A stretch of DNA of 20,224 nt from Myxococcota bacterium (lineage in GTDB: Bacteria; Myxococcota_A; UBA9042; PHBI01; JAWLBL01). The stretch's first letter is position 1, and each line of letters begins with the position of its first letter. Below the pieces are notes generated by a model. The model ran no database searches and was not told where the DNA came from. It was given only the letters and a program-made list of their open reading frames with translations. The stretch is from NCBI GenBank assembly GCA_041687695.1, contig JAWLBL010000012.1:156324-176547 (forward strand). The letters are read 5' to 3'. Of this stretch, positions 1-20,224 are shown in pieces. A program made the position numbers and the translations under genes.

Positions 1-231
1 CGGGTCGTTGAACGACGTTACCGCGGAAACGTGTCCCTCGGGTCGGCAGGCCGGCGGGTCGTTGAACGACGTTACCGCGGAAACGTGTCCCTCGGGTCGG
101 CAGGCCGGCGGGTCGTTGAACGACGTTACCGCGGAAACGTGTCCCTCGGGTCGACAGGGTCGGCAGGCCGGCGGGTCGTTGAACGACGTTACCGCGGAAA
201 CGTGTCGCTCGGGTCGGCAGGCCGGCGGGTC
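1..231. repeat. Tandem array of 54-bp units (one 63-bp unit), each with the near-palindromic core CGTTACCGCGGAAACG; probably continues left of the window
   Basis: Unit cgggtcgttgaacgacgttaccgcggaaacgtgtccctcgggtcggcaggccgg. Cores at 16-31, 70-85, 124-139 and 187-202 (spacings 54, 54, 63). The array runs into the mrpE stop codon (230-232). Confidence 0.95.
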
Positions 232-718
232 AGTGGGGGCCGAAGGCGCGGATGACGCGGCGCTCGACGCGGGCCTTGAGGCGGCGGCGGAAGCCGTCGA
301 GGTCGTCGGGGTCGAGGTACATGGCGTGGACGTAGAGGAACCGGCGGTCGCGGGAGACGTCGAGGGAGACCGAGCCGGGGGTCAGGGTGACCAGGGTCGC
401 CAGGATGGTGATCTCGGCGTCGCTGCGGACGTCGAGGGGGACGGCGACGACGCCGGGGCGCATGCGGTGACGGGGCGTGATGACGTCGTAGGCGACGCGC
501 AGGGAGGCGAGGACGAGGTCCCAGGCGAAGACCGCGAGCAGGATGGCGAAGTGGCGGACGCGGGTGGCGTAGCCGGTCGAGCCGACGAGGGGCTCGAGGA
601 CCCACAGGACGGCGTAGCCGACGAGGAGGCCGACCATGAAGCTCTCGGCGGTCAGCTCGCCGCCGATGGCGACCCAGACGAAGGCGAGCAGGAGGTGGAT
701 GCTGAGGCTGCGGGTCAT
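230..718 (-). CDS. mrpE: Mrp/Mnh Na+/H+ antiporter subunit E (162 aa)
   Basis: Starts [15 protein letters not shown], with the ATG overlapping the mrpD stop (ATGA). Motifs [22 protein letters not shown] and LYVHAM are typical of MrpE. Confidence 0.9.
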
Positions 719-2244
719 CGGGGGACCCCCTTGGGGCCCAGGACGGCCTGGAGGTAGGCGGTAGGATCGCGCAGCTCGTCGGCGGCGGCGCGGGCGATGT
801 CGACCAGGGGCTCGGCGAACAGGCCGACGAGGACGGTCAGGGCCGCGAGGGCGGCCGTGGGGAGGACGAGCGCGAGGGGGACGGGGCGGCCGGTGGGTCC
901 GGTGGCGAGCGGCGGGGCGACCGGGTGGGGGGCGAGGAAGGCCTTGACCCAGATCTTGGTCATGGACAGCAGCGTCAGCAGGCTGACCAGCACGGCCACC
1001 GCGACGATGGTCCACTGGCGGGCCTCGAGGCCGGCGCCGAGCACCAGGAGCTTGCCCCAAAAGCCCGACAGCGGGGGGATGCCGGCCAGGGCCAGGGCGG
1101 GGACCAGGAAGAGCGCGGCCAGGGCGGGCCGGTGGGCGTACAGGCCGCCGATGCGCGACAGGTCGTAGCTGCCGGCGGCGCGGCGGATGAGGCCGCTGAC
1201 CAGGAAGAGGCAGCTCTTGGCCAGGATGTTGTGGACCATGAAGAAGATGGCGGCGAGCAGGCCCAGGCGGGTGTCGAGGGCGAGCCCGAAGACGATGTAG
1301 CCGATCTGGCTGATGATGTGGAACGACAGCAGGCGCCGCAGATCGTTCTGGGCCACGGCGCCGAGGACGCCGGTGAGCATGGTCAGGGCGGCGGCGACGG
1401 CCAGGAGATCGTGGGTGAAGGCGACGTCCTGCCGGAAGAGCAGGGTGAAGGTGCGGATGAGGGCGTAGGTGCCGACCTTGGTCAGCATGCCGGCGAAGGC
1501 GGCGGTGGTCGCGACCGGGGCGGCGGGGTAGGAGGCGGGGAGCCAGAAGAAGAGCGGGAAGAGGGCCGCCTTGATGCCGAAGGCGCCCATGAACAGGACC
1601 GAGGTCGCCGTGACCAGGGCCGGCGTCTCGGCGCGGCGCAGGGCCAGGGCGAGGTCGGCCATGTTGAGCGTGCCGGTCATGCCGTAGACCAGACCGACGC
1701 CGATGAGGAGCAGCAGCGAGGCGACGAGGCTGAGGACCAGGTACTTGAGCGCGCCCTGCAGCTGCGCACGCGTCGGGCGCCCCTTCGGCCCGAACAGCAG
1801 CAGGACGAAGGAGCCCATCAAGAGCACCTCGAACCAGACGTAGAGATCGAAGAGATCGCCGGCGAGGTAGCTGCCGCAGACGCCGAGCACCATCAGGTGC
1901 AAGAGGGGCTGGAAGCCGATGGTCACCTCGCGGTCATCCAGATCGATCGCGGCGTAGGCCGAGGTGGCCAGGCCGATGACGCCGGTGACGACCAGCATCA
2001 GCGCGCTCAGGTGGTCGGCGACCAGCGTGATGCCAAAGGGCGCCGGCCAGCCACCGACCTGCGTCGCGATGGGCCCGTGGGCGCGCACCAGGGCCAGCAG
2101 CCACACGGCGACGGCCAGCAGCAGCGCCATGCCGCCGACGCCGAACAGCCGCCGCAGCCAGGGCAGGCGCCCGGCGACGAGCGACAGCACCGCCGCGATG
2201 AGCGGGATGAGCAGCGGCGCGGCGAGCAGGCTCTCGGGCCTCAT
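715..2244 (-). CDS. mrpD: Mrp/Mnh antiporter subunit D (509 aa)
   Basis: Starts MRPESLL, coupled by ATGA to the mrpC stop. Motifs GGWPAPFGITLVAD, DLFDLYVWFEVLL, GIKAALFPLFFWLPASY, LLSFHIISQIGY and GIPPLSGFWGK. Confidence 0.93.
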   Translation of the reverse strand: MRPESLLAAPLLIPLIAAVLSLVAGRLPWLRRLFGVGGMALLLAVAVWLLALVRAHGPIATQVGGWPAPFGITLVADHLSALMLVVTGVIGLATSAYAAIDLDDREVTIGFQPLLHLMVLGVCGSYLAGDLFDLYVWFEVLLMGSFVLLLFGPKGRPTRAQLQGALKYLVLSLVASLLLLIGVGLVYGMTGTLNMADLALALRRAETPALVTATSVLFMGAFGIKAALFPLFFWLPASYPAAPVATTAAFAGMLTKVGTYALIRTFTLLFRQDVAFTHDLLAVAAALTMLTGVLGAVAQNDLRRLLSFHIISQIGYIVFGLALDTRLGLLAAIFFMVHNILAKSCLFLVSGLIRRAAGSYDLSRIGGLYAHRPALAALFLVPALALAGIPPLSGFWGKLLVLGAGLEARQWTIVAVAVLVSLLTLLSMTKIWVKAFLAPHPVAPPLATGPTGRPVPLALVLPTAALAALTVLVGLFAEPLVDIARAAADELRDPTAYLQAVLGPKGVPR

Positions 2245-2651
2245 GGGGGCGCCTCGTCGGCGTCGGCCTGGTCCGCGGTCTCGAGCCCGCCCGAGACCTG
2301 GCCGTCGGGGGGGCGGTCGTCGAGCTGGTCGACGTCCCATGTGCCCTCGACGTCCTCGACGCGCTTGAGCAGCACCATCGTGAAGGTCAGCAGGCCGAAG
2401 CTGATGACCAGCGCGGTCAGGATGAGCGCTTGCGGCAGCGGGTTGGCGAAGGGCTGCGTGAGGGCCGTCTGGTCCGGCGGGATGATGGCCGGGCCGCCTC
2501 GGGTCACGCGGCCCATCGCGAAGAGCAGCAGGTTGACGGCGTTGGTGCCGAGCATCAGGCCCATGAGGATGCGCACCATGTTGCGCTGCAACAAAAGGTG
2601 CACGGTCACGCCGAACAGCGCCCCGGTGAGCAGGACGAGCAGGGCGTTCAT
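2241..2651 (-). CDS. mrpC: Mrp/Mnh antiporter subunit C (136 aa)
   Basis: Starts MNALLVLL with an ATGA overlap. Motifs NAVNLLLF and NPLPQALILTALVISFG. Confidence 0.92.
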   Translation of the reverse strand: MNALLVLLTGALFGVTVHLLLQRNMVRILMGLMLGTNAVNLLLFAMGRVTRGGPAIIPPDQTALTQPFANPLPQALILTALVISFGLLTFTMVLLKRVEDVEGTWDVDQLDDRPPDGQVSGGLETADQADADEAPP

Positions 2652-3078
2652 CGGGGGCCCTCGGGGCCGGGGACCTCGTCGCGGGGCGCGAGGCCGAAGA
2701 CGCCGACCAGCAGGACGCCGACGACGACCAGGAAGATGCCGGTGTCGAAGAGGATGGGCGAGCCGAGCTTGATGAAGGCGTTTTCGAACCAGACGCCGGT
2801 CAGGAACGGCTCGCCGACCAGCGGGCCGACGAAGCCCGACAGGGCGACGAGGGCGACGCCGGCCCCGATGACCGGCCGCGGGCCGACGCGGGTCGCGCGG
2901 CGGACCTGGTCGGGGCCGAAGGCGAGGCCCTGCAGGACGAAGCCCGCGCCCGCCATGAGCCCGGCGATGAAGCCGCCGCCGGCCGCGTCGTGGCCGCGCA
3001 CCAGCAGGAGGACGGAGAGGACGAGGATGAGGGGCACCAGCAGGCGTGTTGCGGTGCAAAAGAGCAGGCTGCTCTGCA

Positions 3079-3082
<4 letters not shown>
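2648..3082 (-). CDS. mrpB: Mrp/Mnh antiporter subunit B (144 aa)
   Basis: Starts MMQSSLLF with an ATGA overlap and a GGAG RBS. Motifs RGHDAAGGGFIAGL and LFDTGIFLVVVG. Confidence 0.92.
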
Positions 3083-5384
<2,302 letters not shown>

Positions 5385-5388
<4 letters not shown>

Positions 5389-5759
5389 GGGGTGGGCGGC
5401 GCGGGCGGCTCGGGGGACGCGGGGGGCTCGGGCGGCGTGGGGTCGTGGCCGCGGAGCTCGTCGATCCAGGTGCCCTTCCACAGGGGGATGCGGGCGTAGT
5501 AGGTGGCGCGGGCGAGGACGTGGGCGCCGACGGGGCCGGTCAGGACGACGACGATGAGGAAGGCGACGGCGCGGCTGATGACGCCGAGCTGGGGGTGGAG
5601 GACGGCGATGGCGGCGGTGAGCAGGCCGGTGCCGAGGGTGGCGGCCTTGGTGGCCGCGTGCATGCGGGTGAGGACGTCGGGCAGGCGGACGATGCCGAGG
5701 GCGCTGACCGCCATGAAGGCGGCGCCGGCGAGGACGAGGAGGGCGCCGAGGGTCTCCAT
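5385..5759 (-). CDS. mrpG: Mrp/Mnh antiporter subunit G (124 aa)
   Basis: Starts METLGALL. Motifs GIVRLPDVLTRMHAATKAATLG and GPVGAHVLARA, followed by a Pro-rich tail. Confidence 0.92.
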
Positions 5760-5767
5760 GGCGGGGT

Positions 5768-6091
5768 TCAGTCCGGGTTCCCGGGGGGCGGGTCGTCGTC
5801 GCGGCGGCGGGGCGCGGCGCCGACCAGGACGGAGCGGGCGACGGCGACGGTGCTGAGGAAGGCGACGGCGGCGAGGACCAGGGCGGCGTCGATGAGCTCG
5901 GGCTGCCCGATGGCGAGGCCGTAGACGATGATGAAGCCGATGGTCTGGTAGGCGGCGTTGTCGAGGGCGATGACGCGGTCGGGCAGGCTGGGGCCGAGGA
6001 CGAGGCGGGCCAGCGAGAGCGCGAGGCCGACGCTGAGGGCGACGAAGGCGACGCTCATCGCCCAGCCGAGGAGGCCTTCTCCGAGCTCCAT
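5768..6091 (-). CDS. mrpF: Mrp/Mnh antiporter subunit F (107 aa)
   Basis: GGAG RBS upstream of the ATG. Motifs RLVLGPSLPDRVIALD and AFLSTVAVAR; three hydrophobic segments. Confidence 0.9.
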   Translation of the reverse strand: MELGEGLLGWAMSVAFVALSVGLALSLARLVLGPSLPDRVIALDNAAYQTIGFIIVYGLAIGQPELIDAALVLAAVAFLSTVAVARSVLVGAAPRRRDDDPPPGNPD

Positions 6092-9772: not shown

Positions 9773-10870
9773 GTGAAAACAATCGCCACGGCAGGCCTGC
9801 TGGCCGCCGCGTCCTTCGTGCTGGTCCCCCTCCGACCCGCCGTCGCCTGCTCGCCCCCGGGCGCTTGGCTGCATCGGACCGCGCAACCCGCAGAGGGCGC
9901 CATCGGCGTCCCCACCAACGCCGAGGTGCGCGTCTCGTACATAGGGTGCCTCGACGAGCTGGGCAACGCCCAGGTCCAGCCCGCGCTCGAGACGGCCGCG
10001 GGCGAGGCGGTCGCGGTCACCGTCGAGAAGGTCGAGGACAGCCTCGTCTTCGGCCGCCTGAGCTTCGTGCTGCGCCCCACGGCGCCGCTGACGCCCGAGA
10101 CCGAGTACCGGGTCGTCGACGGGCTGGACCTCGGCGACGAGGGTGACCTCCAATGCTTCGAGCTGGCGCAGGCGGGCTCGGGCACGGCGCCGCCGCTCAA
10201 TACCTTCACGACCGGCGCCGGCCCCGACACGAGCCCCCCGACCTTCGCCGGCGCGACCGGCGCGGTCGTCAGCGACGACGCCTGCGACGACAGCGCCTGC
10301 TGCGGGCCCTACTTCGTCCAGCGGGTCCAGCTGTCCTACGCGCCCGCGACCGACGACGTGCTGCCGGTCGAGCTGCGCTACCACGTGTACGCCCAGGGGC
10401 AGGACCAACCGCTGGTGCGCTACACCCAGGCCCCCGTGGGCATCGCTTGCGGCAGCGACCCCCTGAGCCCCTGGGACGGCTTCACGGTGCCGCCCGGCGC
10501 GACCGCCGCGCTGTACCTCCGCGCCGTCGACCTCGCTGGCAACGTGGCCGGCCCCACGACGCCGGTGTCGGTGGCGATCGACTGCGATCCCGACCCCATC
10601 GCCGAGCCCGGCCCCGAGCCCACGGTCGAACCCGGCCCCGAGGCGACCGCCGAGCCCGGCCCGGTCGCCGAGGACCAGCCCGACGCCGGCAGCACGCCCG
10701 ACGTGGGCGCCGAAGCCGACACCGCGCCCGACGCCGGCCCGCCATCAGACGCCAAGGGCTCTGGATGTGGTGCCGCCAGCTCGGGCCCGCTGGCCGGGCT
10801 GCTCGCGCTGCTGGCCCTTGCGGCAAGCCGCCGCCGTACGCGTTCCGCGCGTTCGCCGAGCGCCCCATGA
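9773..10870 (+). CDS. Exported Ig-like (Big_5/SbsA-like) domain protein with a MYXO-CTERM-like sorting tail, paralog 1 (365 aa)
   Basis: Signal peptide ending AVA-C. Ig-like signature PAEGAIGVPTN...LRPTAPLTPETEYRV...FTTG, an EPGPE linker, and the tail GSGCGAA-hydrophobic-RRR. Confidence 0.85.
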   Translation: MKTIATAGLLAAASFVLVPLRPAVACSPPGAWLHRTAQPAEGAIGVPTNAEVRVSYIGCLDELGNAQVQPALETAAGEAVAVTVEKVEDSLVFGRLSFVLRPTAPLTPETEYRVVDGLDLGDEGDLQCFELAQAGSGTAPPLNTFTTGAGPDTSPPTFAGATGAVVSDDACDDSACCGPYFVQRVQLSYAPATDDVLPVELRYHVYAQGQDQPLVRYTQAPVGIACGSDPLSPWDGFTVPPGATAALYLRAVDLAGNVAGPTTPVSVAIDCDPDPIAEPGPEPTVEPGPEATAEPGPVAEDQPDAGSTPDVGAEADTAPDAGPPSDAKGSGCGAASSGPLAGLLALLALAASRRRTRSARSPSAP

Positions 10871-11922
10871 AGGCGTCGGCGACCCTCTTGGCCCTGGCGT
10901 CGGCCGCGACGCTGACCCTCACCCCGCGCCCCGCGCCCGCCTGCGGGCCGCCGCTGGCCTCGATGCACCGCCAGGTGCAGCCCGCGCCCGGCGCCGAAGG
11001 CGTGCCGACCAACGCCGAGGTCCGCGTGACCTACCGCGGCTGCGTCGACGCGCTGGTCGAGGCGGGCCTCGCGCCGTCGCTCGAGACGGCGGCCGGCGCC
11101 GAGGTCGCGGCCACGGTCGAGCGCGTCGAAGACGCCAAGGCGCTGGGCCGGGTTACCTTCGTGCTGCGGCCCGAGGCCCCGCTCGCGGCCGGCGCCGACC
11201 ACCGGGTCGTCGATGGGATCCGGGTCGGCGGCGAGCTGGCCTCGTCCTGCACGGACTACCAGGCCCAGGCCGACGACGTGACCGCCTTCGCCACCTTCAC
11301 GACCGGCGCCGGGGCCGACACCGCCCCGCCCGCCTTCGCGGGCCTCGATGGCGCCAGCGCCGAAGCGGAGGCCTGCCTGGACGTGTCCTGCTGCGAGCCG
11401 TACGCCATCCAGCGCGTCACGCTGGCCTTCACGCCCGCCACCGACGACATGCTGCCGGGCGAGCTGCGGTACAACGTCTACGCCCAGTCCCAGGCGTCGC
11501 CGCTGGCCCGCTATGTGAAGGACCCGGTGGGTATCGCTTGCGATCGCCACCCTGACCCACCGCTGGGCGCCTTCGCCCTCCCGAGCGAGTCGCCGGCCAT
11601 GCTCTACGTCCACGCCGTCGACCTGGCCGGCAACGAGGCCGGCGCGTCGACCCCCGTGGCCGTGGCGTTCGACTGCAACGGCGACTCCGCGGCCGAGCCG
11701 GGCCCCGAGCCCGCGGCCGAGCCGGGCCCCGAGCCCGCGGCCGAGCCGGGCCCCGAGGAGCCGGCCGACACCAACGCCGGCGCCGAGTCCGAGCCCGACG
11801 CCGCCCCCGCGCCCAACACCCGGGGCTCCGGCTGCCAGGGTAGCGGTGCTGGCGCGATGGCTCCGCTGCTCGCGCTCTTGGCCATGCTCATGGGGCTCCG
11901 GTCCCGCCGCCAGCGCAGCTGA
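10867..11922 (+). CDS. Exported Ig-like domain protein with a MYXO-CTERM-like tail, paralog 2 (351 aa)
   Basis: ATG at 10867 overlaps the paralog 1 stop (ATGA). Colinear with paralog 1 (GVPTNAEVRV, LETAAG, FTTGAG, CC.PY, PATDD.LP.ELRY.VYAQ, AVDLAGN). Tail GSGCQG-hydrophobic-RSRR. Confidence 0.87.
   Translation: MKASATLLALASAATLTLTPRPAPACGPPLASMHRQVQPAPGAEGVPTNAEVRVTYRGCVDALVEAGLAPSLETAAGAEVAATVERVEDAKALGRVTFVLRPEAPLAAGADHRVVDGIRVGGELASSCTDYQAQADDVTAFATFTTGAGADTAPPAFAGLDGASAEAEACLDVSCCEPYAIQRVTLAFTPATDDMLPGELRYNVYAQSQASPLARYVKDPVGIACDRHPDPPLGAFALPSESPAMLYVHAVDLAGNEAGASTPVAVAFDCNGDSAAEPGPEPAAEPGPEPAAEPGPEEPADTNAGAESEPDAAPAPNTRGSGCQGSGAGAMAPLLALLAMLMGLRSRRQRS
11687..11757 (+). repeat. Intragenic 24-bp tandem repeat x3 encoding (AAEPGPEP)n
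   Basis: ccgcggccgagccgggccccgagc at 11687, 11711 and 11735. Confidence 0.85.
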
Positions 11923-13588: not shown

Positions 13589-14779
13589 TCAGCGGACCCG
13601 GTGGACGACCCGTCCCTCCGCCTCGCCCATTCGCCAGCGGGTCTCCACCTCGAGCGCCCGCCGGTCGTCGGCGGGGGCCTGCAGCGCGACCTCGACGTCC
13701 AGCGTGGCGTCGGCCGCGACCGGCCGCGGCTCGAGCGGCAGAAAGGTCTTCTTCCAGTGCGTCTCGGGGTCGGCCGGCCCGGTCGGCAGCTCGACGCCTT
13801 CGCACAGGTCCAGGGTGAACCAGCCCATCAGGCCTACCAGCTCGCCCGCCGGCAGCCCCTCGAAGCGCGCCGTCCCGCCGACCACCGCGCCCATCCCCGG
13901 GTAGGGCACGTCCGCGATCACCGCCCCCGGGTGCATCAGCGACTCGGGCAACGCGTCCTGTGTCATCGCGCGCCCCAACGCCGGCTCACGCAGCGCCGAC
14001 AGGTCCACGCCACGATAGGTGCCGAAGGCGTCCATCGCGTCGTCGAAGGCCCCGCGCGCCCCGACCGGGGCGACGTGCAACCTCACCCCGCGGGGGATCA
14101 CCTGTCCGTCGGGCTTCAGGTTGCGCTTCACGCAGGCCTCCAGATCCGGCGCGCTGCCCTCGGCCAGCGCTAGCGCCCCGAAGGTCTCGGTGACGATCAC
14201 GTCCACCGGCTCGGGCAGCTGCACCGTCCCAAAGTCCCCCCGAATCAGCCGGATCTGCTCGTCGACGCCCGATCGCCGCGCGGTCTCGGCCGCCACGTCC
14301 ATCAGCTCGGAGCGATCGACCGCGTAGACGACCCTCGCCCCCGCCAGCGCCGCCAGGCACGCCAGCACGCCCGACCCGGTCCCGGCGTCCAGCACGGCCA
14401 TCCCCGGCTTCACCACCTGCGCGATCGCGTCGGCGTAGGCGTCCAGCCGCACCTTGTCGGCCAACATGCGCCGGTGCACGTCGATGGCCCCGAACCCCTC
14501 GAACATGGCCGGCGTCGCGTCGGCCTCGCCCTCGGCCACCAGGAACCCGACCTGCGCCAGCTTGCGAAACAGCGCCGCCCCCTGCGGCCCGAAGTTCTCG
14601 GCCACGTCGTCCAGCGTCCTCGGCTCGGAGCAAAAGGCGAGCAGCAGCGCCGACTGCGGCGGTACCCGCGCCGCGATGCCGGCCGAGGTCGACCGCAGCC
14701 TCAGCGCCCCTCCCGCTTCGAACGAGGCCGTCAGATCGGTCAGGCGCACCAGCGCCACGTCGTCTCGAGATGTGCTCAT
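13589..14779 (-). CDS. PRMT-like (protein arginine methyltransferase family) SAM-dependent methyltransferase with an N-terminal wHTH/RRE-like segment (396 aa; alternative GTG start at 14788)
   Basis: FEGFGAIDVHRRMLAD, motif I VLDAGTGSGVL, VYAVD, double-E loop VDVIVTETFGALALAE, LKPDGQVIP, GWFTLDL and the LPTGP..ETHW loop. Confidence 0.85.
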   Translation of the reverse strand: MSTSRDDVALVRLTDLTASFEAGGALRLRSTSAGIAARVPPQSALLLAFCSEPRTLDDVAENFGPQGAALFRKLAQVGFLVAEGEADATPAMFEGFGAIDVHRRMLADKVRLDAYADAIAQVVKPGMAVLDAGTGSGVLACLAALAGARVVYAVDRSELMDVAAETARRSGVDEQIRLIRGDFGTVQLPEPVDVIVTETFGALALAEGSAPDLEACVKRNLKPDGQVIPRGVRLHVAPVGARGAFDDAMDAFGTYRGVDLSALREPALGRAMTQDALPESLMHPGAVIADVPYPGMGAVVGGTARFEGLPAGELVGLMGWFTLDLCEGVELPTGPADPETHWKKTFLPLEPRPVAADATLDVEVALQAPADDRRALEVETRWRMGEAEGRVVHRVR

Positions 14780-14789
14780 GTCGCGCACC

Positions 14790-15692
14790 CTACCACCGAA
14801 AGGCCACGTCGAAGCGCGGCAACAGCTGCCAGTCGTCCGGCCCCGGGAAGTCGCCCGCCGACAGCCACCACCCCGCCTCGACCCGCACCGACGACCCGGC
14901 CCGCCAGGCCAGCCCGGCCGAGTGGTTCCAGACGGGGCTGCCGTCCTCGTACTCGCCGCCCAACAATACGAAGAGCGTCACGTCGGCGAAGTAGTCGAAG
15001 GGGCCGGCGATGGGCCCCTCGGCGGCCAGCGTGGCGTCCAGCGTCGCCCCGTTCACCCAATGCGCAGTGCGCTCGTACAGGTACCAGAGATCCGCCGTCG
15101 TCAGGTTCGCGCGCCCGAAGGAGGCCGCGGCCCGGACGCCCGCGCGCGCGGTCAGCGCGTGTCGCCGGTCCTCGGTGGAGGGGGCGCGGGGCAGCCCCTC
15201 GGGCAGCCAGGTCGCCAGGACGTGGGAGTGGAACGCCACGATGGTCGGCGTGACCGTCTCCTCGGCCCACAGGCCGCCCGTGCCTGCGCGCGACAGCGTC
15301 TCGATGAGCGGCGTCGGGTAGGCCAGCGTGTGCTCGGACGACAACACCAGGTGCTCCGACGCGCGCCACAGCACCTTGGCCGTCAGGTTCGGCATCAACA
15401 GGTTGGCCAGGGCGTGCGTCGACAGCTCGACCCGCTCGGTCAGTCCGTAGCGCAGCGGCGCGAAGACCCCGATCTCCCAGTCGCCCGGGGCGACGGTGCG
15501 GGCGGTCTGCCCCGACCACGGCGCGTGCGGCGTCGGCACGGACGACTCGGGCAGCGATTGCTCATCCGCCTCGTGCGCCTCGAGCTTCGGGCGCAGCTCA
15601 TCCGGGCCGGCAGGCCCCTGAGGCGCAGCGAAGGCGTGCGCCGACGCGACCAACGACAGGACGCCGCAACAGGCTCGTACGGGTGCCTTCAT
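14790..15692 (-). CDS. Exported hypothetical protein, probable outer-membrane beta-barrel (300 aa)
   Basis: Signal peptide MKAPVRACC..ASAHA; ATG overlaps the upstream stop. Alternating amphipathic strands and a C-terminal FDVAFRW ending in an aromatic residue. Confidence 0.72.
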   Translation of the reverse strand: MKAPVRACCGVLSLVASAHAFAAPQGPAGPDELRPKLEAHEADEQSLPESSVPTPHAPWSGQTARTVAPGDWEIGVFAPLRYGLTERVELSTHALANLLMPNLTAKVLWRASEHLVLSSEHTLAYPTPLIETLSRAGTGGLWAEETVTPTIVAFHSHVLATWLPEGLPRAPSTEDRRHALTARAGVRAAASFGRANLTTADLWYLYERTAHWVNGATLDATLAAEGPIAGPFDYFADVTLFVLLGGEYEDGSPVWNHSAGLAWRAGSSVRVEAGWWLSAGDFPGPDDWQLLPRFDVAFRW

Positions 15693-16816
15693 GGCGCCAG
15701 CTCCAAGTCGACGGCGACAGGTGCGTGGTCGCTGAGCGGCATGGTCGGCAGGCAGGTCCCCGCCTCGCAGCCCGGACCGTCGAACTCGTCCTGGAACGTC
15801 ACGCCGGATCCGGGCACGAACCGCCCGTTGGTGAAGAGGTAGTCGAGCTTCCGGTTCCAGAACGCCCGCCCGTCGACCGTATGCGTGAAGTAGGCCGCGT
15901 TGTCCGCCTGGTAGTCGGCCAACGGCGTCTCTGGGTCGTACTTGGCGTACAGACCCGCCAGCACGTCGGCCTCTTGCGAGTAGTCGTCGTCGCGGTAGGC
16001 CTGGTCCGTGCACACGGCGTCGGGGAAGTCCTGCACCTTGTCGGAGCCGGGCGGCAGCGTGTTCAGGTCTCCTCCCGCCACGAACGTCTTGCCCTCGGCC
16101 GCCAACTGGTCCAGGTGCTGCTCGAACAGCGCGATCTGCCGCTCCTTGGTTCCGTCGTGCGAGTACGCCTCGGTGTGCACGACGACGGTCCACAAGCCGC
16201 CTTCGACGCCGGGCACCTCGACCCGCGCCTCGAGCAGCGCCCGCTGCAGGTAGAAGTAGCGCTTGAGCGCGTCGTACTCGCCGACCAGCGGCAACGCCAG
16301 CCGCTTTGCGTCGTGGAGCGGCCAACGCGAGAGCACCGCCTGACCCGAGTCGACCCGGCCCACCCCGTCCGAGGGCACGAAGTCGGCCCGCCACTGCGAC
16401 GCATAGGCGGCGTGGTTCAGGTCGGTGTGATCCAGCAGGTACTGGACCTGATCGATGTACGCGCTGCGCTTGGAGGCGACGTCGACCTCCTGGACGAACA
16501 ACACGTCCGGGTCCACCTCGCGAATCTTGGCGGCGATCCCGTCCAGATGGGCCCGGACCTCGGCCGCCTTCATCACCCCCCGGTTGCCGTGACAGTCGAA
16601 GAAGAAGTCCAGCCGCCCTCCCCCGTACTTCACGTTCCAGTTCATCACCCGCAACGAGCCGTTCGGGGCCGTCGCCGGCTCGGGCGTCCGATCCGCGTAC
16701 ATCACCGCCGGCTCGACCGGCTCGAACTGGGTGTCGAACACGTCCCACGCTTCGCACCCGCCCGAGGCCACCGTCGCGATCAGGCCCAGCGCTCTCCAGG
16801 ACATCACCCGCCGCAT
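15689..16816 (-). CDS. Endonuclease/exonuclease/phosphatase (EEP) family lipoprotein (375 aa)
   Basis: GGAGG RBS before the ATG at 16816; lipobox-like ASGG-C. Motifs LRVMNWNVKY, DVLFVQEVD, VHTE, GGDLNT, KLDYLFT and LSDHAPV. Confidence 0.9.
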   Translation of the reverse strand: MRRVMSWRALGLIATVASGGCEAWDVFDTQFEPVEPAVMYADRTPEPATAPNGSLRVMNWNVKYGGGRLDFFFDCHGNRGVMKAAEVRAHLDGIAAKIREVDPDVLFVQEVDVASKRSAYIDQVQYLLDHTDLNHAAYASQWRADFVPSDGVGRVDSGQAVLSRWPLHDAKRLALPLVGEYDALKRYFYLQRALLEARVEVPGVEGGLWTVVVHTEAYSHDGTKERQIALFEQHLDQLAAEGKTFVAGGDLNTLPPGSDKVQDFPDAVCTDQAYRDDDYSQEADVLAGLYAKYDPETPLADYQADNAAYFTHTVDGRAFWNRKLDYLFTNGRFVPGSGVTFQDEFDGPGCEAGTCLPTMPLSDHAPVAVDLELAP

Positions 16817-16839
16817 CGCCACCTCCCGGTCCCACGCTC

Positions 16840-18441
16840 CTAGCCGACTCGCCCGGCCGCCGCAACCCCAGCCCTGGCCCGCCGCTGCCGAATCGGCGCC
16901 AGCGCCGCGCCCATGTCCAGCCGCTCACCCCGCCACCCGGGCAGGTTCGTCGCGCGGTCGATGGTCACTCCGGCCTCGCGATTGGCCGCCTCGACCCGCC
17001 GCCCGCCCCGGACGATCGCCGGACGCGCCGGCACCACCGGCAGCTCGGAGCCGTCGGGACGCCTGAACACGACGCGCACGCCCTCGCGCGCAACGGTGAA
17101 TCCCCCCTCATGCACCAGCGCGTGGTGGCGACGACACAGCAGCACCAGGTTCTCGAGGCTGGTCTCGCCTCCGTCGGCCCAATGCCGCAGGTGGTGACCG
17201 TCCACGTGCCGACGGTGGTCGCACCCCGGGAAGCGACATCCCCCGTCGCGAATCCTCAACGCTCGGGCGATCGCGGGCGGAATGCTGCGCGTCTTGCGCC
17301 CGATGTCGAGCGGCTGCCCTGCCCCGTCCACGACGACACCCAGCAGCGACGCGTCGCAGGCCAACCGACGCGCCGTCTCGGGTGCGATGGCTGGACCGCC
17401 GTCGATCTCGCACCGTCCCGGCGGCCCGTCCTCGGCGAGCGTGTCGGCCTGCACATGCACCACGACCTGATGCCTGCGTCCGCCATCGAGCCCCAGCGGC
17501 TCGCCGTCGGCGGCGGCCAGGAACCGCTCGGCCATCATCACGAGCCCGTCCGCATGACGCGCGCTCACGGTCTCGGCCTCGGCGCCCCGAGGCGGCATCG
17601 AAGAGGCGAACTCGACCGCGCCATCTCCCCGCGCTGCGCCGTCCCGCTTCACCTCAACCGTCTGCGCTCCCGCCTGCTGCACTTCGGCCCGCTTCTCTTC
17701 GTCCCGCTCCCCTTCTGCGCGCTCCATGTCCGACGTCGCGTCGCCAACCTCGGCACCATAGCCGGTCTCGGCCGACCCATGACCAGGTCCCTCCCCCGGT
17801 CCCGCCGCTCGCTCGGACTGGGTGCGCGCCGCTTTGCGCAGCCCGTCGACCGCCGCCCGCAAGCCCTCGAGAAACAGCGCCCCCTCCTCGGGAGGCAGGC
17901 TGGCCCGGACGATGAGCGCCCCATCCTCGTCCCAGTGCCAGGTCAGCTCCCGCTCGCGCCGCATCCGATCGGCCTGCTTGCGAGCCTCGCGTCGATCCAG
18001 CTTGCGCTGCTCGCTGACGACCCGCTCGACGTGCGCCGCCGTGCCGGTCTTGGCCAGATACAACAGGTAGTCCTCGGTCTCGGGGCACGCGACGCGCGTC
18101 ACCGCGCGCACCTTCGAATAGCTCACCTCGCCCGCCCCGTAAGCCTGGGACAGCTTCGGCAGCCCCTCGAGCGCCCGGGCCACCCTCACCTTCTCGCGCG
18201 CAGCGTTCAGCCCGATGCCGCACCGCCAGCTGAGCCAGTGGGCGCACGACCGAACGCCCTCGCCCGTCCAGGCGCCGCGGCGGTCGAACACCGCGAGCAT
18301 CCGTAGAAAGCGGCACTCGGCCGCGTCCAGATGAGCGGCCGCCGCCGCCAGCCGGTCCCCCAGCTCGTCCCGCGACATCGCCTCCAACGCCTCGGCGCTC
18401 ACCTCGCCCAGGGGCGAATCGACTTCGTGTCCTTCAGCCAC
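16840..18441 (-). CDS. DUF222 (13E12-like) domain protein with a C-terminal HNH endonuclease (533 aa)
   Basis: AGGAGG RBS and GTG start. DUF222-like SCAHWLSWRCG..GEVSYSKVRAVTRVA and ETARRLACDA. HNH region RDGGCRFPGC..DGHHLRHWADGGETSLENLVLLCRRHHALVH. Confidence 0.92.
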   Translation of the reverse strand: MAEGHEVDSPLGEVSAEALEAMSRDELGDRLAAAAAHLDAAECRFLRMLAVFDRRGAWTGEGVRSCAHWLSWRCGIGLNAAREKVRVARALEGLPKLSQAYGAGEVSYSKVRAVTRVACPETEDYLLYLAKTGTAAHVERVVSEQRKLDRREARKQADRMRRERELTWHWDEDGALIVRASLPPEEGALFLEGLRAAVDGLRKAARTQSERAAGPGEGPGHGSAETGYGAEVGDATSDMERAEGERDEEKRAEVQQAGAQTVEVKRDGAARGDGAVEFASSMPPRGAEAETVSARHADGLVMMAERFLAAADGEPLGLDGGRRHQVVVHVQADTLAEDGPPGRCEIDGGPAIAPETARRLACDASLLGVVVDGAGQPLDIGRKTRSIPPAIARALRIRDGGCRFPGCDHRRHVDGHHLRHWADGGETSLENLVLLCRRHHALVHEGGFTVAREGVRVVFRRPDGSELPVVPARPAIVRGGRRVEAANREAGVTIDRATNLPGWRGERLDMGAALAPIRQRRARAGVAAAGRVG

Positions 18442-18473
18442 GCTCCGGCCTCCTGATTCAAAGGAAGAGGAGC

Positions 18474-18502
18474 ACCGTGCCTGAACGCACGTTCCGTGTC
18501 AA
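18474..18502 (-). promoter_or_regulatory. Sigma70-type promoter TTGACA-N17-CACGGT for the DUF222-HNH gene
   Basis: Minus strand: TTGACA (18502-18497), 17-nt spacer, CACGGT (18479-18474), about 32 nt upstream of the GTG. Confidence 0.6.
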
Positions 18503-18514
18503 CACCCGTTCAGC
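18480..18514. promoter_or_regulatory. Two tandem LexA (SOS) box candidates
   Basis: Box 1 (minus, 18496-18480) CGGAACGTGCGTTCAGG has 1 mismatch and box 2 (plus, 18498-18514) GTCAACACCCGTTCAGC has 2 mismatches to the recalled Myxococcus LexA consensus CTRHAMRYBYGTTCAGS. Box 1 also fits GAAC-N4-GTTC. Confidence 0.65.
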
Positions 18515-18825
18515 GCCATCATCGTCGTTTTCCTGATATCGCAATACCTACATGCAGTTACAATGACACGACCGCCTGCTGGAGGTCACCGAGGGCGGCG
18601 GAGAAGCGAGCGCGAGTCGATCGCCCGCAGCCCGGTAGAATCGGTCGAAAGTGCCACGCCAGCATCGGAGGTTGCGTAGCGTGGCGGATGGTGCGGGCGA
18701 CGCCGTGCCGTCGCGGTAAGCGGGAGGCCGCATCTCGGAGGCGTAGCCGGGCGACCAGGGCCTTGCGCGTCCAGGAGGCGCGCCGCGGTCGCCGTGCAGG
18801 TCTCCGCGGCGGCGCAAAGGGCTAG

Positions 18826-18989
18826 GAGGCTGTAGTGAATAAGCTGATTCGCCGGCTCCGGCCGATCTTGGGCAGCTCCGGCCCCGGGAGACGCTGCGGC
18901 GAACCGCTCGGTTCACCTCGGTCTCCCGGAACCGGATCTGCTCCAACCTCGGCTCGGATCCGACAAATCCCATTATTCACTACAGCCTC
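18826..18989. mobile_element. 164-bp MITE (non-autonomous IS derivative) with 17-bp perfect TIRs and flanking CTAG duplication
   Basis: CTAG (18822-25) + GAGGCTGTAGTGAATAA (18826-42) ... TTATTCACTACAGCCTC (18973-89) + CTAG (18990-93). The interior is also an imperfect inverted repeat centred on gaaccg-ct-cggttc. Confidence 0.85.
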
Positions 18990-18999
18990 CTAGTGAGGC

Positions 19000-20224
19000 G
19001 CCGTCGCGTTTCCGCGGAAACGTTCCTCGACCGAGGCGACCTCGGTCGACGAGATCTCGCGGGCAGGAAGGGCGCGTGGAAAGCGCCTGTCAGGCGTCCA
19101 GTGCGCGGGAAGGGCCTTGTGAGGTGCCGTGGCGCTACCGCGGAAACGTTCAGCCACGGAGGCGACCTGGGGTGCCGAGGGACTTGCGCGCCCAATAGAC
19201 GCGCCGCGGTCGCGTTGCAGATCCCGGGGGCGCGCGGAGGGCCTCTCGAGGTGCCGTGGCGTTACCGCGGAAACGTTCAGCCACGGAGGCGACCTGGGGC
19301 GACGCGAGCGAGCGGGCAGCGGTGGCGCGTGGAGGGCGCGTGGCAGGACCCCGGGACGGCGCGGAGGGCCTCGTGAGGTGCCATGGCATTACCGAGGAAA
19401 CGTTCAGCCACGGAGGTGACCTGTGGTGCCGAGGGACTTGCGATCGGGCGCGGCGAGCCCCAGCAGGTCGCCGCGACACGCGAAGGGCTGCGTCACGTGC
19501 CGTGGCGTTTCCGCGGAAACGTTCAGCCACGGAGACGACGTCTGGTGACGTGGCCCTTGCGCGCCCAGCAGGAGCGCCGAGGGCGCGTGGCAGGACCCCC
19601 GGGCGCGCGGAGGGCCTCTCGAGGTGCCGTGGCGTTGCCGCGGAAACGTTCAGCCACGGAGGTGACCTGTGGTGCCGAGGGGCTTGCGATCGGGCGCGGC
19701 GAGCCCCAGCAGGTCGCCGCGACACGCGAAGGGCTGCGTCACGTGCCGTGGCGTTTCCGCGGAAACGTTCACCACGGAGACGACGTCTGGTGACGTGGCC
19801 CTTGCGCGCCCAGCAGGAGCGCCGAGGGCGCGTGGCAGGACCCCGGGGCGCGCGGAGGGCCTCTCGAGGTGCCGTGGCGTTGCCGCGGAAACGTTCACCA
19901 CGGAGACGACGTCTGGTGACGTGGGACTTGCGCGCCCAGCAGGAGCGCCGAGGGCGCGTGGCAGGACCCCGGGGCGCGCGGAGGGCCTCTCGAGGTGCCG
20001 TGGCGTTGCCGCGGAAACGTTCACCACGGAGACGACGTCTGGTGACGTGGGACTTGCGCGCCCAGCAGGAGCGCCGAGGGCGCGTGGCAGGACCCCGGGG
20101 CGCGCGGAGGGCCTCGTGAGGTGCCGTGGCGTTACCGCGGAAACGTTCAGCCACGGAGACGACGTCTGGTGACGCGAACGAGCGGGCAGCGGTGGCGCGT
20201 GGAGGGCGCGTGGCAGGTCCCCGG
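19000..20224. repeat. Mosaic tandem array of at least 10 units of 119-127 bp, each with a hairpin around the palindromic core CGTT(T/A/G)CCGCGGAAACG; continues past the window end
   Basis: Cores start at 19007, 19133, 19260, 19387, 19506, 19633, 19752, 19878, 20004 and 20130 (spacings 126, 127, 127, 119, 127, 119, 126, 126, 126). Most units carry gtgCCGTGGc-core-ttca(g)CCACGGag; unit 1 is more diverged. Confidence 0.95.

Follow-up and report, generated by a model that had tools for sequence, protein, structure and literature searches.

The 20,224-nucleotide stretch of contig JAWLBL010000012.1 from a Myxococcota bacterium (hereafter the window) contains a gene for a protein with a DUF222 domain and a C-terminal HNH nuclease domain, preceded by a tandem array of a 16-bp palindrome. 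In homologous genes, this palindrome typically lies inside the coding sequence, where it appears to be kept by selection at the DNA level: synonymous positions are fixed and two reading frames are used. Clades of the family carry their own variants of the palindrome, and by comparison of sequences these variants track one residue, number 79, of the predicted recognition helix. This covariation makes it likely that the DUF222-HNH protein itself, rather than the host ParB, binds the palindrome, in support of what an initial annotation of the window had proposed. The typical location of the site inside coding sequence and the clade-specific variants are features outside that annotation. Coordinates are collected in Table 1.

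A palindrome within DUF222-HNH genes and the residue it tracks

With one mismatch allowed, the palindrome occurs 111 times in 114,867 gene bases versus 7 times in 700,165 flank bases, at 53 of 80 loci. In five genomes, selected for having the gene and counted from two tables, family genes and their immediate vicinity account for 39 of the 49 sites. The co-occurrence of motif and gene clade across genomes, which the initial annotation had named as a check, is supported. At the protein level the site surfaces as recurring peptides. A peptide of the SAE[TS] type is found in 75 of 120 proteins (homologue search, query included), 53 of 70 VSAET peptides are encoded by the exact palindrome versus 0.36 expected from codon usage, and in 25 of 26 cases an FRGN peptide is this palindrome DNA read in the next frame; by reading frame, the in-gene sites divide 87 versus 28. 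At 99 of 118 sites, complementarity extends beyond the core to its flanking bases, either as C-G or as T-A. The recurring VSAET, DSAES, VPAGT and FRGN peptides would then be explained as DNA signals, not protein motifs, and a binding site selected within coding sequence in two reading frames would be demonstrated. Over 141 loci, the linker, pre-HNH region and tail are rich in sites, with 2.1-4.7 per kb; the promoter region, with 3 sites in 51 kb (0.06 per kb), is at background level. Within one gene, sites are found at several places where the protein tolerates them, and site-bearing units of unrelated lengths have been duplicated repeatedly, some of them in frame within genes.

The family is large, with at least 7,996 DUF222-HNH homologues among 8,000 candidates scored; the top ones bear the label Deltaproteobacteria. 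A survey that started from the motif found the 16-mer in 10 of 300 genomes of the phylum and a reversed control in 12. Three or more 16-mers were present in 2 of the 300, and in each of the two a family gene accompanies one of the sites; together, these two genomes have a family gene at 2 of 9 sites and none at the other 7 within the stretch covered. In the eight single-match genomes, the 2.5 kb covered contained no family gene, and the 18-mer was found in 0 of 40 relatives.

The link between helix and site comes from a dereplicated set of 96 loci at which a site was called, drawn from 117 of the 141 aligned, with site-less loci left out. Residue 79 is among the top five columns for four of the five half-site positions tested. 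H79 pairs with GTCCCC arms (3/3 versus 0/93), with three origins on a tree built without helix and linkers, while N79 pairs with GTTACC (6/11 versus 1/85) and E113 with a GGCC centre (2/3 versus 0/93); in a separate protein set, VTA[EV]T occurs in 11 of 22 N79 proteins versus 0 of 97 others. Among 48 disjoint sister pairs, the site class, based on arm classes defined post hoc, changes in 14 of 17 pairs with a residue-79 change versus 5 of 31 without (p = 1e-5), and in this test residue 79 ranks 1 of 391 columns. Between paralogues 82-83% identical in one genome, four symmetric bases of a site at the same position switch together with four helix or downstream residues. Three observations that played no part in deriving the rules fit them: CGTCCCCGCGGGGACG lies 109 bp upstream of a homologue with H79 on a Rhodococcus plasmid, the C40 paralogue in the source genome, with V79, has CGCTTCCGCGGAAGCG within the gene, and GTTACC accounts for 38 of 86 half-sites in the source genome, in agreement with N79 of the window protein. 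Going by these pairings, the GTTACC/GTTTCC sites of this genome likely belong to the window protein.

Residues 84 and 113 were rejected as further specificity positions: they have high mutual information, yet their sister-pair ranks are 76 and 263, and the H/Q84 change has a single origin. A clade comprising L197, L198, L210 and L211, along with P0002 and P0003 (closest-scoring homologues), has the helix AGEK and downstream SKMRA.

Pfam confirms both domain assignments of the initial annotation, with the window protein scoring 83.3 bits against PF02720 (DUF222; cut-off 24.4) and 26 against HNH (cut-off 21.4). The HNH domain, which matches IscB, McrA and TagI, is likely active, because its catalytic and zinc residues (C402, C407, H416, H417, N431, H439, H440) are invariant in 120 sequences. 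For the N-terminal domain, a structure model of residues 22-165 (pLDDT 96.7) returned only ParB/Noc/Spo0J in the top 11 Foldseek rows (probability 0.92-1.00, E 0.2-1.1). The top four VIA matches are ParB (Z 7.9, root-mean-square deviation 4.7, 109 aligned), Spo0J (6.9, 2.7, 91) and KorB (6.3 and 5.7), followed by an unrelated fold at Z 5.2. HTH_ParB is the commonest non-DUF222 Pfam match (16 of 137 members at E <= 1), and HHalign against ParB (E 0.0016, probability 16%) aligns the invariant R112 to the Arg of the ParB GHAR motif. The single scores are weak and the weight lies in the agreement across methods; on that footing the ParB-like helix-turn-helix (HTH), which the initial annotation had suggested from a resemblance by eye, is predicted with moderate confidence. 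An N-terminal ParB/Srx CTPase domain has no Pfam match, and the model shows only helices ahead of the HTH. Sequence-profile searches of the PDB gave no ParB match and an ESM Atlas search no usable match.

In keeping with the SOS control proposed for the gene, its promoter has a LexA-type box, which agrees with 16 of 17 positions of the Myxococcus xanthus consensus (PMC9705874). Such matches number 13 in the source genome, of which 6 precede family genes, and at two or fewer mismatches the box is found at 23 of 25 family genes in this genome versus 1 of 200 random windows; host lexA and recA match the consensus only at four mismatches. A gamma-type LexA box is present at 70 of 122 homologous loci versus 1 of 101 control windows. 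LexA control of the 13E12 family has been published for mycobacteria (PMC3381160). The window gene is putatively damage-induced.

Palindromic arrays of the window and of the source genome

The window holds 14 palindromic sites, three of which, at 19007, 19506 and 19752, are the perfect form CGTTTCCGCGGAAACG. The initial annotation had counted at least 10 core copies upstream of the gene and 4 in the left array; both counts stand. The first intact right-hand site lies 566 bp from the start codon (18441), so the array start that had been placed at ~565 bp is correct for intact sites, but a degenerate first unit, separated from the rest by a miniature inverted-repeat transposable element (MITE), moves the beginning of the array to ~250 bp from the start codon. 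The MITE is a later insertion unrelated to the array; we take its ends to be IS5-like. The two arrays had further been described as unrelated except for the core. They do have the core alone in common, because the unit at 19243-19370 has genome matches in its own array only, but the 54-bp unit is not unique to the left array: of the 46 matches to its flank, 29 have a core no more than 150 bp away, both in the left array and elsewhere in the genome, and the unit belongs to a unit family that is intergenic, clustered and dispersed in the source genome. Both arrays extend outside the window across assembly gaps. They are unlikely to be coding sequence, since units of 119 and 127 bp do not preserve a reading frame. 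Rfam gave no match for the window, nor for four loci of paralogues.

The 8-Mb source genome has 43 copies of CGTTDCCGCGGHAACG, which form 14 clusters on 9 contigs, versus 0.036 expected under an order-5 Markov model, so the genome-wide excess over a null that the initial annotation had set as a check is found. With one mismatch allowed, the real core has 41 matches, whereas each of 25 shuffled palindromes used as controls has 0-6. The right array is the only cluster that adjoins a gene of the window clade. Of the 433 tandem arrays in the genome, 24 carry one of three family palindromes, in units of many unrelated lengths.

Table 1. Positions of the features under discussion (window coordinates unless a contig is named).
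Feature	Position	Strand	Remark
DUF222-HNH gene, 533 amino acids, GTG start	16840..18441	-	Pfam
HNH nuclease domain, residues 398-445	17107..17250	-	Pfam
ParB/Noc/KorB-like HTH core, predicted, residues 66-114	18100..18246	-	recognition helix predicted at residues 78-91
Candidate specificity residue N79	18205-18207	-	residue-site covariation
LexA-type box	18480..18496	-	16/17 positions of M. xanthus consensus; directly after TTGACA hexamer 18497-18502
First array unit, degenerate	18692..18821 (approx.)	+	core decayed; severed by MITE
MITE, 172 bp	18822..18993	.	terminal inverted repeats, CTAG at each end; about a dozen genome copies
Right-hand tandem array	18990..20224	+	one palindrome per 119-127-bp unit, 10 in window; runs past gap to ~C12:176911
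Right-hand sites (10)	starts 19007, 19133, 19260, 19387, 19506, 19633, 19752, 19878, 20004, 20130 (span 19007-20145)		palindromic core
Left-hand array, right end	1..231	+	54/63-bp units; 4 sites in window, 13 seen in total; belongs to dispersed unit family
Left-hand sites (4)	starts 16, 70, 124, 187 (span 16-202)		palindromic core
Second-family gene, L162	C33:13270-14436		
Second-family gene, L163	C1:169789-170928		
Host parAB locus, L161	C18:98858-100982 (parAB C18:99271-100982)		three canonical ACGT-centred parS directly upstream

A proposed self-tethered nuclease and competing explanations

What could such a protein do with a site in its own gene? We propose a selfish, damage-induced element that tethers an HNH nuclease to its own DNA and spreads via nick repair, a model whose chances as a whole we regard as evenly balanced. 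Release of LexA would switch the gene on, and a dimer of the protein would read its own 16-bp palindrome through the ParB-like HTH. Binding would tether the nuclease to the element's own DNA, and nearby nicks, mended by template switching or short-homology recombination, would duplicate site-bearing units and so give rise to arrays; occasionally, the repair might copy the element to other loci. At the window gene, the upstream array would substitute for the missing in-gene sites.

We favour this selfish, nuclease-tethering element because of promoter-to-stop copies with ragged ends and no inverted repeats, rarity on plasmids and phages, no clear enrichment of the site in viruses, and repeated unit duplication. 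Copies within one genome have 1.4-1.8 kb in common, from promoter to stop, at unrelated loci, and five other genomes contain 3-6 family copies each. The family protein is recorded on plasmids 5 times and on phages 3 times. A role of the sites as phage targets or decoys was rejected: the 16-mer occurs in 25 viral stretches versus 16 for one control palindrome, and none of these is beside a family gene. More tentatively, DUF222-HNH genes in general may be an undescribed class of mobile element that has neither a transposase nor defined ends and whose sole cis signal is a ParB-type operator in the coding sequence; the dimer would hold its own gene as a repair template and nick nearby or in trans, and SOS repair would copy the element and amplify the units.

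A number of points weigh against the self-tethering element. Terminal repeats, an evident target duplication, an empty site and a recombinase were not found for the window clade. The window gene, unlike most homologues, has no internal palindrome, with the upstream array instead; 12 of the 13 other clusters in the source genome are on contigs without a gene of the window clade, and the left array is 17 kb from the gene. One clade of close relatives, that with AGEK/SKMRA (4 loci), shows no palindrome, possibly through specificity loss or domestication. The fold scores are moderate, with no Foldseek E <= 0.001, no VIA Z above 7.9 and the low HHalign probability. As to the code, besides the post hoc arm classes, a sister-pair test on any site difference put residue 79 at ranks 14 and 65 of 391, the tree sign tests, among those listed, are too small to reach p < 0.05, GTTACC is missing at 5 of 11 N79 loci, and V79 is paired with three arm types. 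Finally, a nuclease that targets the gene encoding it would have to be restrained in some way.

Restraint is at the centre of the main rival, which we consider unlikely even so: the protein-bound site would act only as a brake, with dimers on gene body and arrays blocking transcription or titrating a toxic nuclease after SOS, and arrays growing by slippage and unequal exchange and being kept by selection. The evidence for a binding code fits this equally well, sites at several tolerant positions per gene are as expected if extra sites help in cis, and in the five genomes sites are mostly confined to genes. Against a brake, the sites avoid the promoter region, as the densities given above show, although a roadblock is still compatible with them; repression, moreover, appears to be covered by LexA already, and both the multi-copy spread and the arrays far from genes would be left unexplained.

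It is improbable that the protein instead serves the host in the damage response, with the dispersed sites marking where it loads or where recombination takes place, be it in repair, rearrangement or chromosome organization. This reading draws on the conserved SOS-type boxes, on the spread of the clusters over nine contigs, and on M. tuberculosis, where inversion breakpoints coincide with 13E12 genes, which the authors ascribe to homologous recombination (PMC13157036). The patchy distribution, however, as seen in the 18-mer count in relatives and the two multi-match genomes of the phylum survey, does not fit, the sites are kept in the gene in most genomes examined, and the ParB CTPase domain was not found by Pfam.

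The initial annotation had likened the amplification of arrays to that of REPs by RAYT, and the units could accordingly be seen as single-strand hairpins like REPs, multiplied by a transposase of the host, RAYT-type or other, with the HNH gene as a bystander. The 54-bp unit family resembles REPs in its intergenic, clustered and dispersed occurrence, and a RAYT-type process could contribute to its dispersal. As a mechanism for the system, the analogy is not supported and is very unlikely, because the array units do not fold: three of them gave folding z values of +1.5, -0.6 and +1.2, no better than shuffles, and 35 of 41 cores are asymmetric variants of the GTTDCC type, which would mispair in a hairpin stem. 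The in-gene location and the covariation with the helix are likewise beyond its reach. Least credible of all are variant parS clusters bound by the host ParB; length and GTTTC/GAAAC arms match parS (PMC7383237), but the host ParB already has canonical parS at parAB, parS was found at 25 of 30 ParB loci of the group, all ACGT-centred and none CGCG, and across phyla the motif is tied to the HNH gene and varies with the helix that this gene encodes.

On the more tentative reading as a class of mobile element, clades that re-code helix and palindrome together would constitute a natural library of programmable nickases targeted to 16 bp. A cognate site and a residue-to-base code would give a large, unexplained family of damage-induced repeats a testable mechanism, and the ParB/Noc HTH family would be extended to a nuclease.

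Related families, window neighbourhood and known systems

The source genome has 2 copies of the window clade and 24 more distant family members. A second, homologous DUF222-like HNH family in this genome (HHalign 96%) comprises 22 loci and falls into two subfamilies with differing helices and palindromes. In the subfamily of 7 genes with one helix, TCGTCCCGGGACGA is present in 7/7 and the other type in 0/7; in that of 15 genes, for 14 of which another helix was observed, CCGCCCCGGGGCGG is present in 15/15, with cross-over in 1/15. Copies inside the genes of paralogues come by descent and do not count as independent. Exact copies lie within 1.5 kb of a family gene in 32 of 43 cases for TCGTCCCGGGACGA and 20 of 33 for CCGCCCCGGGGCGG, and several second-family genes are flanked on both sides by long inverted repeats. 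Gene-less arrays of second-family palindromes are found at C27:85500-86600, C3:293300-294900 and C7:201600-202400 and look like non-autonomous derivatives; both palindrome types alternate in the C27 and C3 arrays, and the former has inverted-repeat brackets seen by eye. Relatives also have second-family-like genes (L207, L209, L219, L221) with their own palindromes centred on GTCCCCGGGGAC.

Two paralogues of 650-700 amino acids, L165 (C22:2404-4353) and L166 (C16:54226-56313), have a tandem-duplicated N-terminal domain and LexA-type boxes. A palindrome was not found for either, and their linkers have the word CAGATGTC in common, a possible non-palindromic target of a monomer with two domains. 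Other repeats of the genome include an 86-bp tandem unit with AGTCCCGGGACT and a LexA-like box at C9:212369-212593, with no family gene nearby, upstream of a pair that by eye resembles an antitoxin and a PIN toxin. Arrays with a period of 41-44 bp and other palindromes, for example GTGGTTCGAACCAC and GGTGGTCGACCACC, lie at C9:43940-44558, C19:163810-164352, C4:252418-252695 and elsewhere, and one at C5:17314-17614 has a period of 83 bp.

Elsewhere in the window, an operon that ends at the left array (230-6091, minus strand) presumably encodes an Mrp/Mnh cation-proton antiporter, as judged by eye. It is followed by an enzyme of the MbnB/TglH/ChrH family (PF05114; 6222-7892, minus) that modifies ribosomally synthesized and post-translationally modified peptides and by two adjacent paralogous, secreted-looking proteins (9773-11922, plus), whose DNA is ~70% alike in places and which have Pro-Glu repeats and Gly-Cys plus hydrophobic tails. 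A PRMT-like methyltransferase (13589-14788, minus) and an exo/endonuclease-phosphatase family protein (15689-16822, minus), the start of which is 18 bp beyond the stop of the HNH gene, complete the neighbourhood.

The closest known system is the REP13E12/13E12 family, which has the same DUF222 (PF02720) and C-terminal HNH in dispersed, multi-copy, gene-sized repeats; its LexA-type control (PMC3381160) is putatively shared by the window gene. In full-text literature, with most subscription journals outside its coverage, no paper was found that links DUF222 to a ParB-like domain or this palindrome, or that assigns the family a cognate site, a DNA-binding fold or a way of spreading. With ParB-parS, Noc-NBS and KorB-OB, the window system shares the HTH fold, as the best structural match, and a 16-bp palindrome with parS-like arms. 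In ParB and Noc, specificity is set by few residues (PMC7383237), and the covariation suggests the same here. Unlike these proteins, that of the window has an added HNH domain, no detected CTPase domain and no parA neighbour, and unlike parS, NBS and OB, DUF222-HNH sites lie inside their own gene, have a CGCG centre and come in many clade-specific variants. A parABS centromere would have ACGT-centred parS beside parAB, whereas the window arrays are CGCG-centred and the host parAB is on C18.

In RAYT/REPIN systems, one repeat type belongs to one nuclease type, and clustered palindromic repeats flank the nuclease gene. The likeness lies in this one-to-one pairing and in a nuclease gene flanked by clustered palindromes that are also found elsewhere in the genome; unlike RAYT with its HUH/Y1 chemistry, the window system has HNH chemistry, non-folding units and a site usually within coding sequence. 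An insertion sequence would show terminal inverted repeats and target duplication, whereas inverted repeats bracket 0 of 93 loci of the window clade, the window gene included, and the ends are ragged. Free-standing HNH homing endonucleases combine a DNA-binding module and HNH in a compact selfish gene. This architecture is shared by the window protein, as it is by HTH-HNH nickases; modular HNH nickases are described in PMC3592412. The two differ in their targets: homing endonucleases act on the allele without the element, whereas the DUF222-HNH element itself carries the site.

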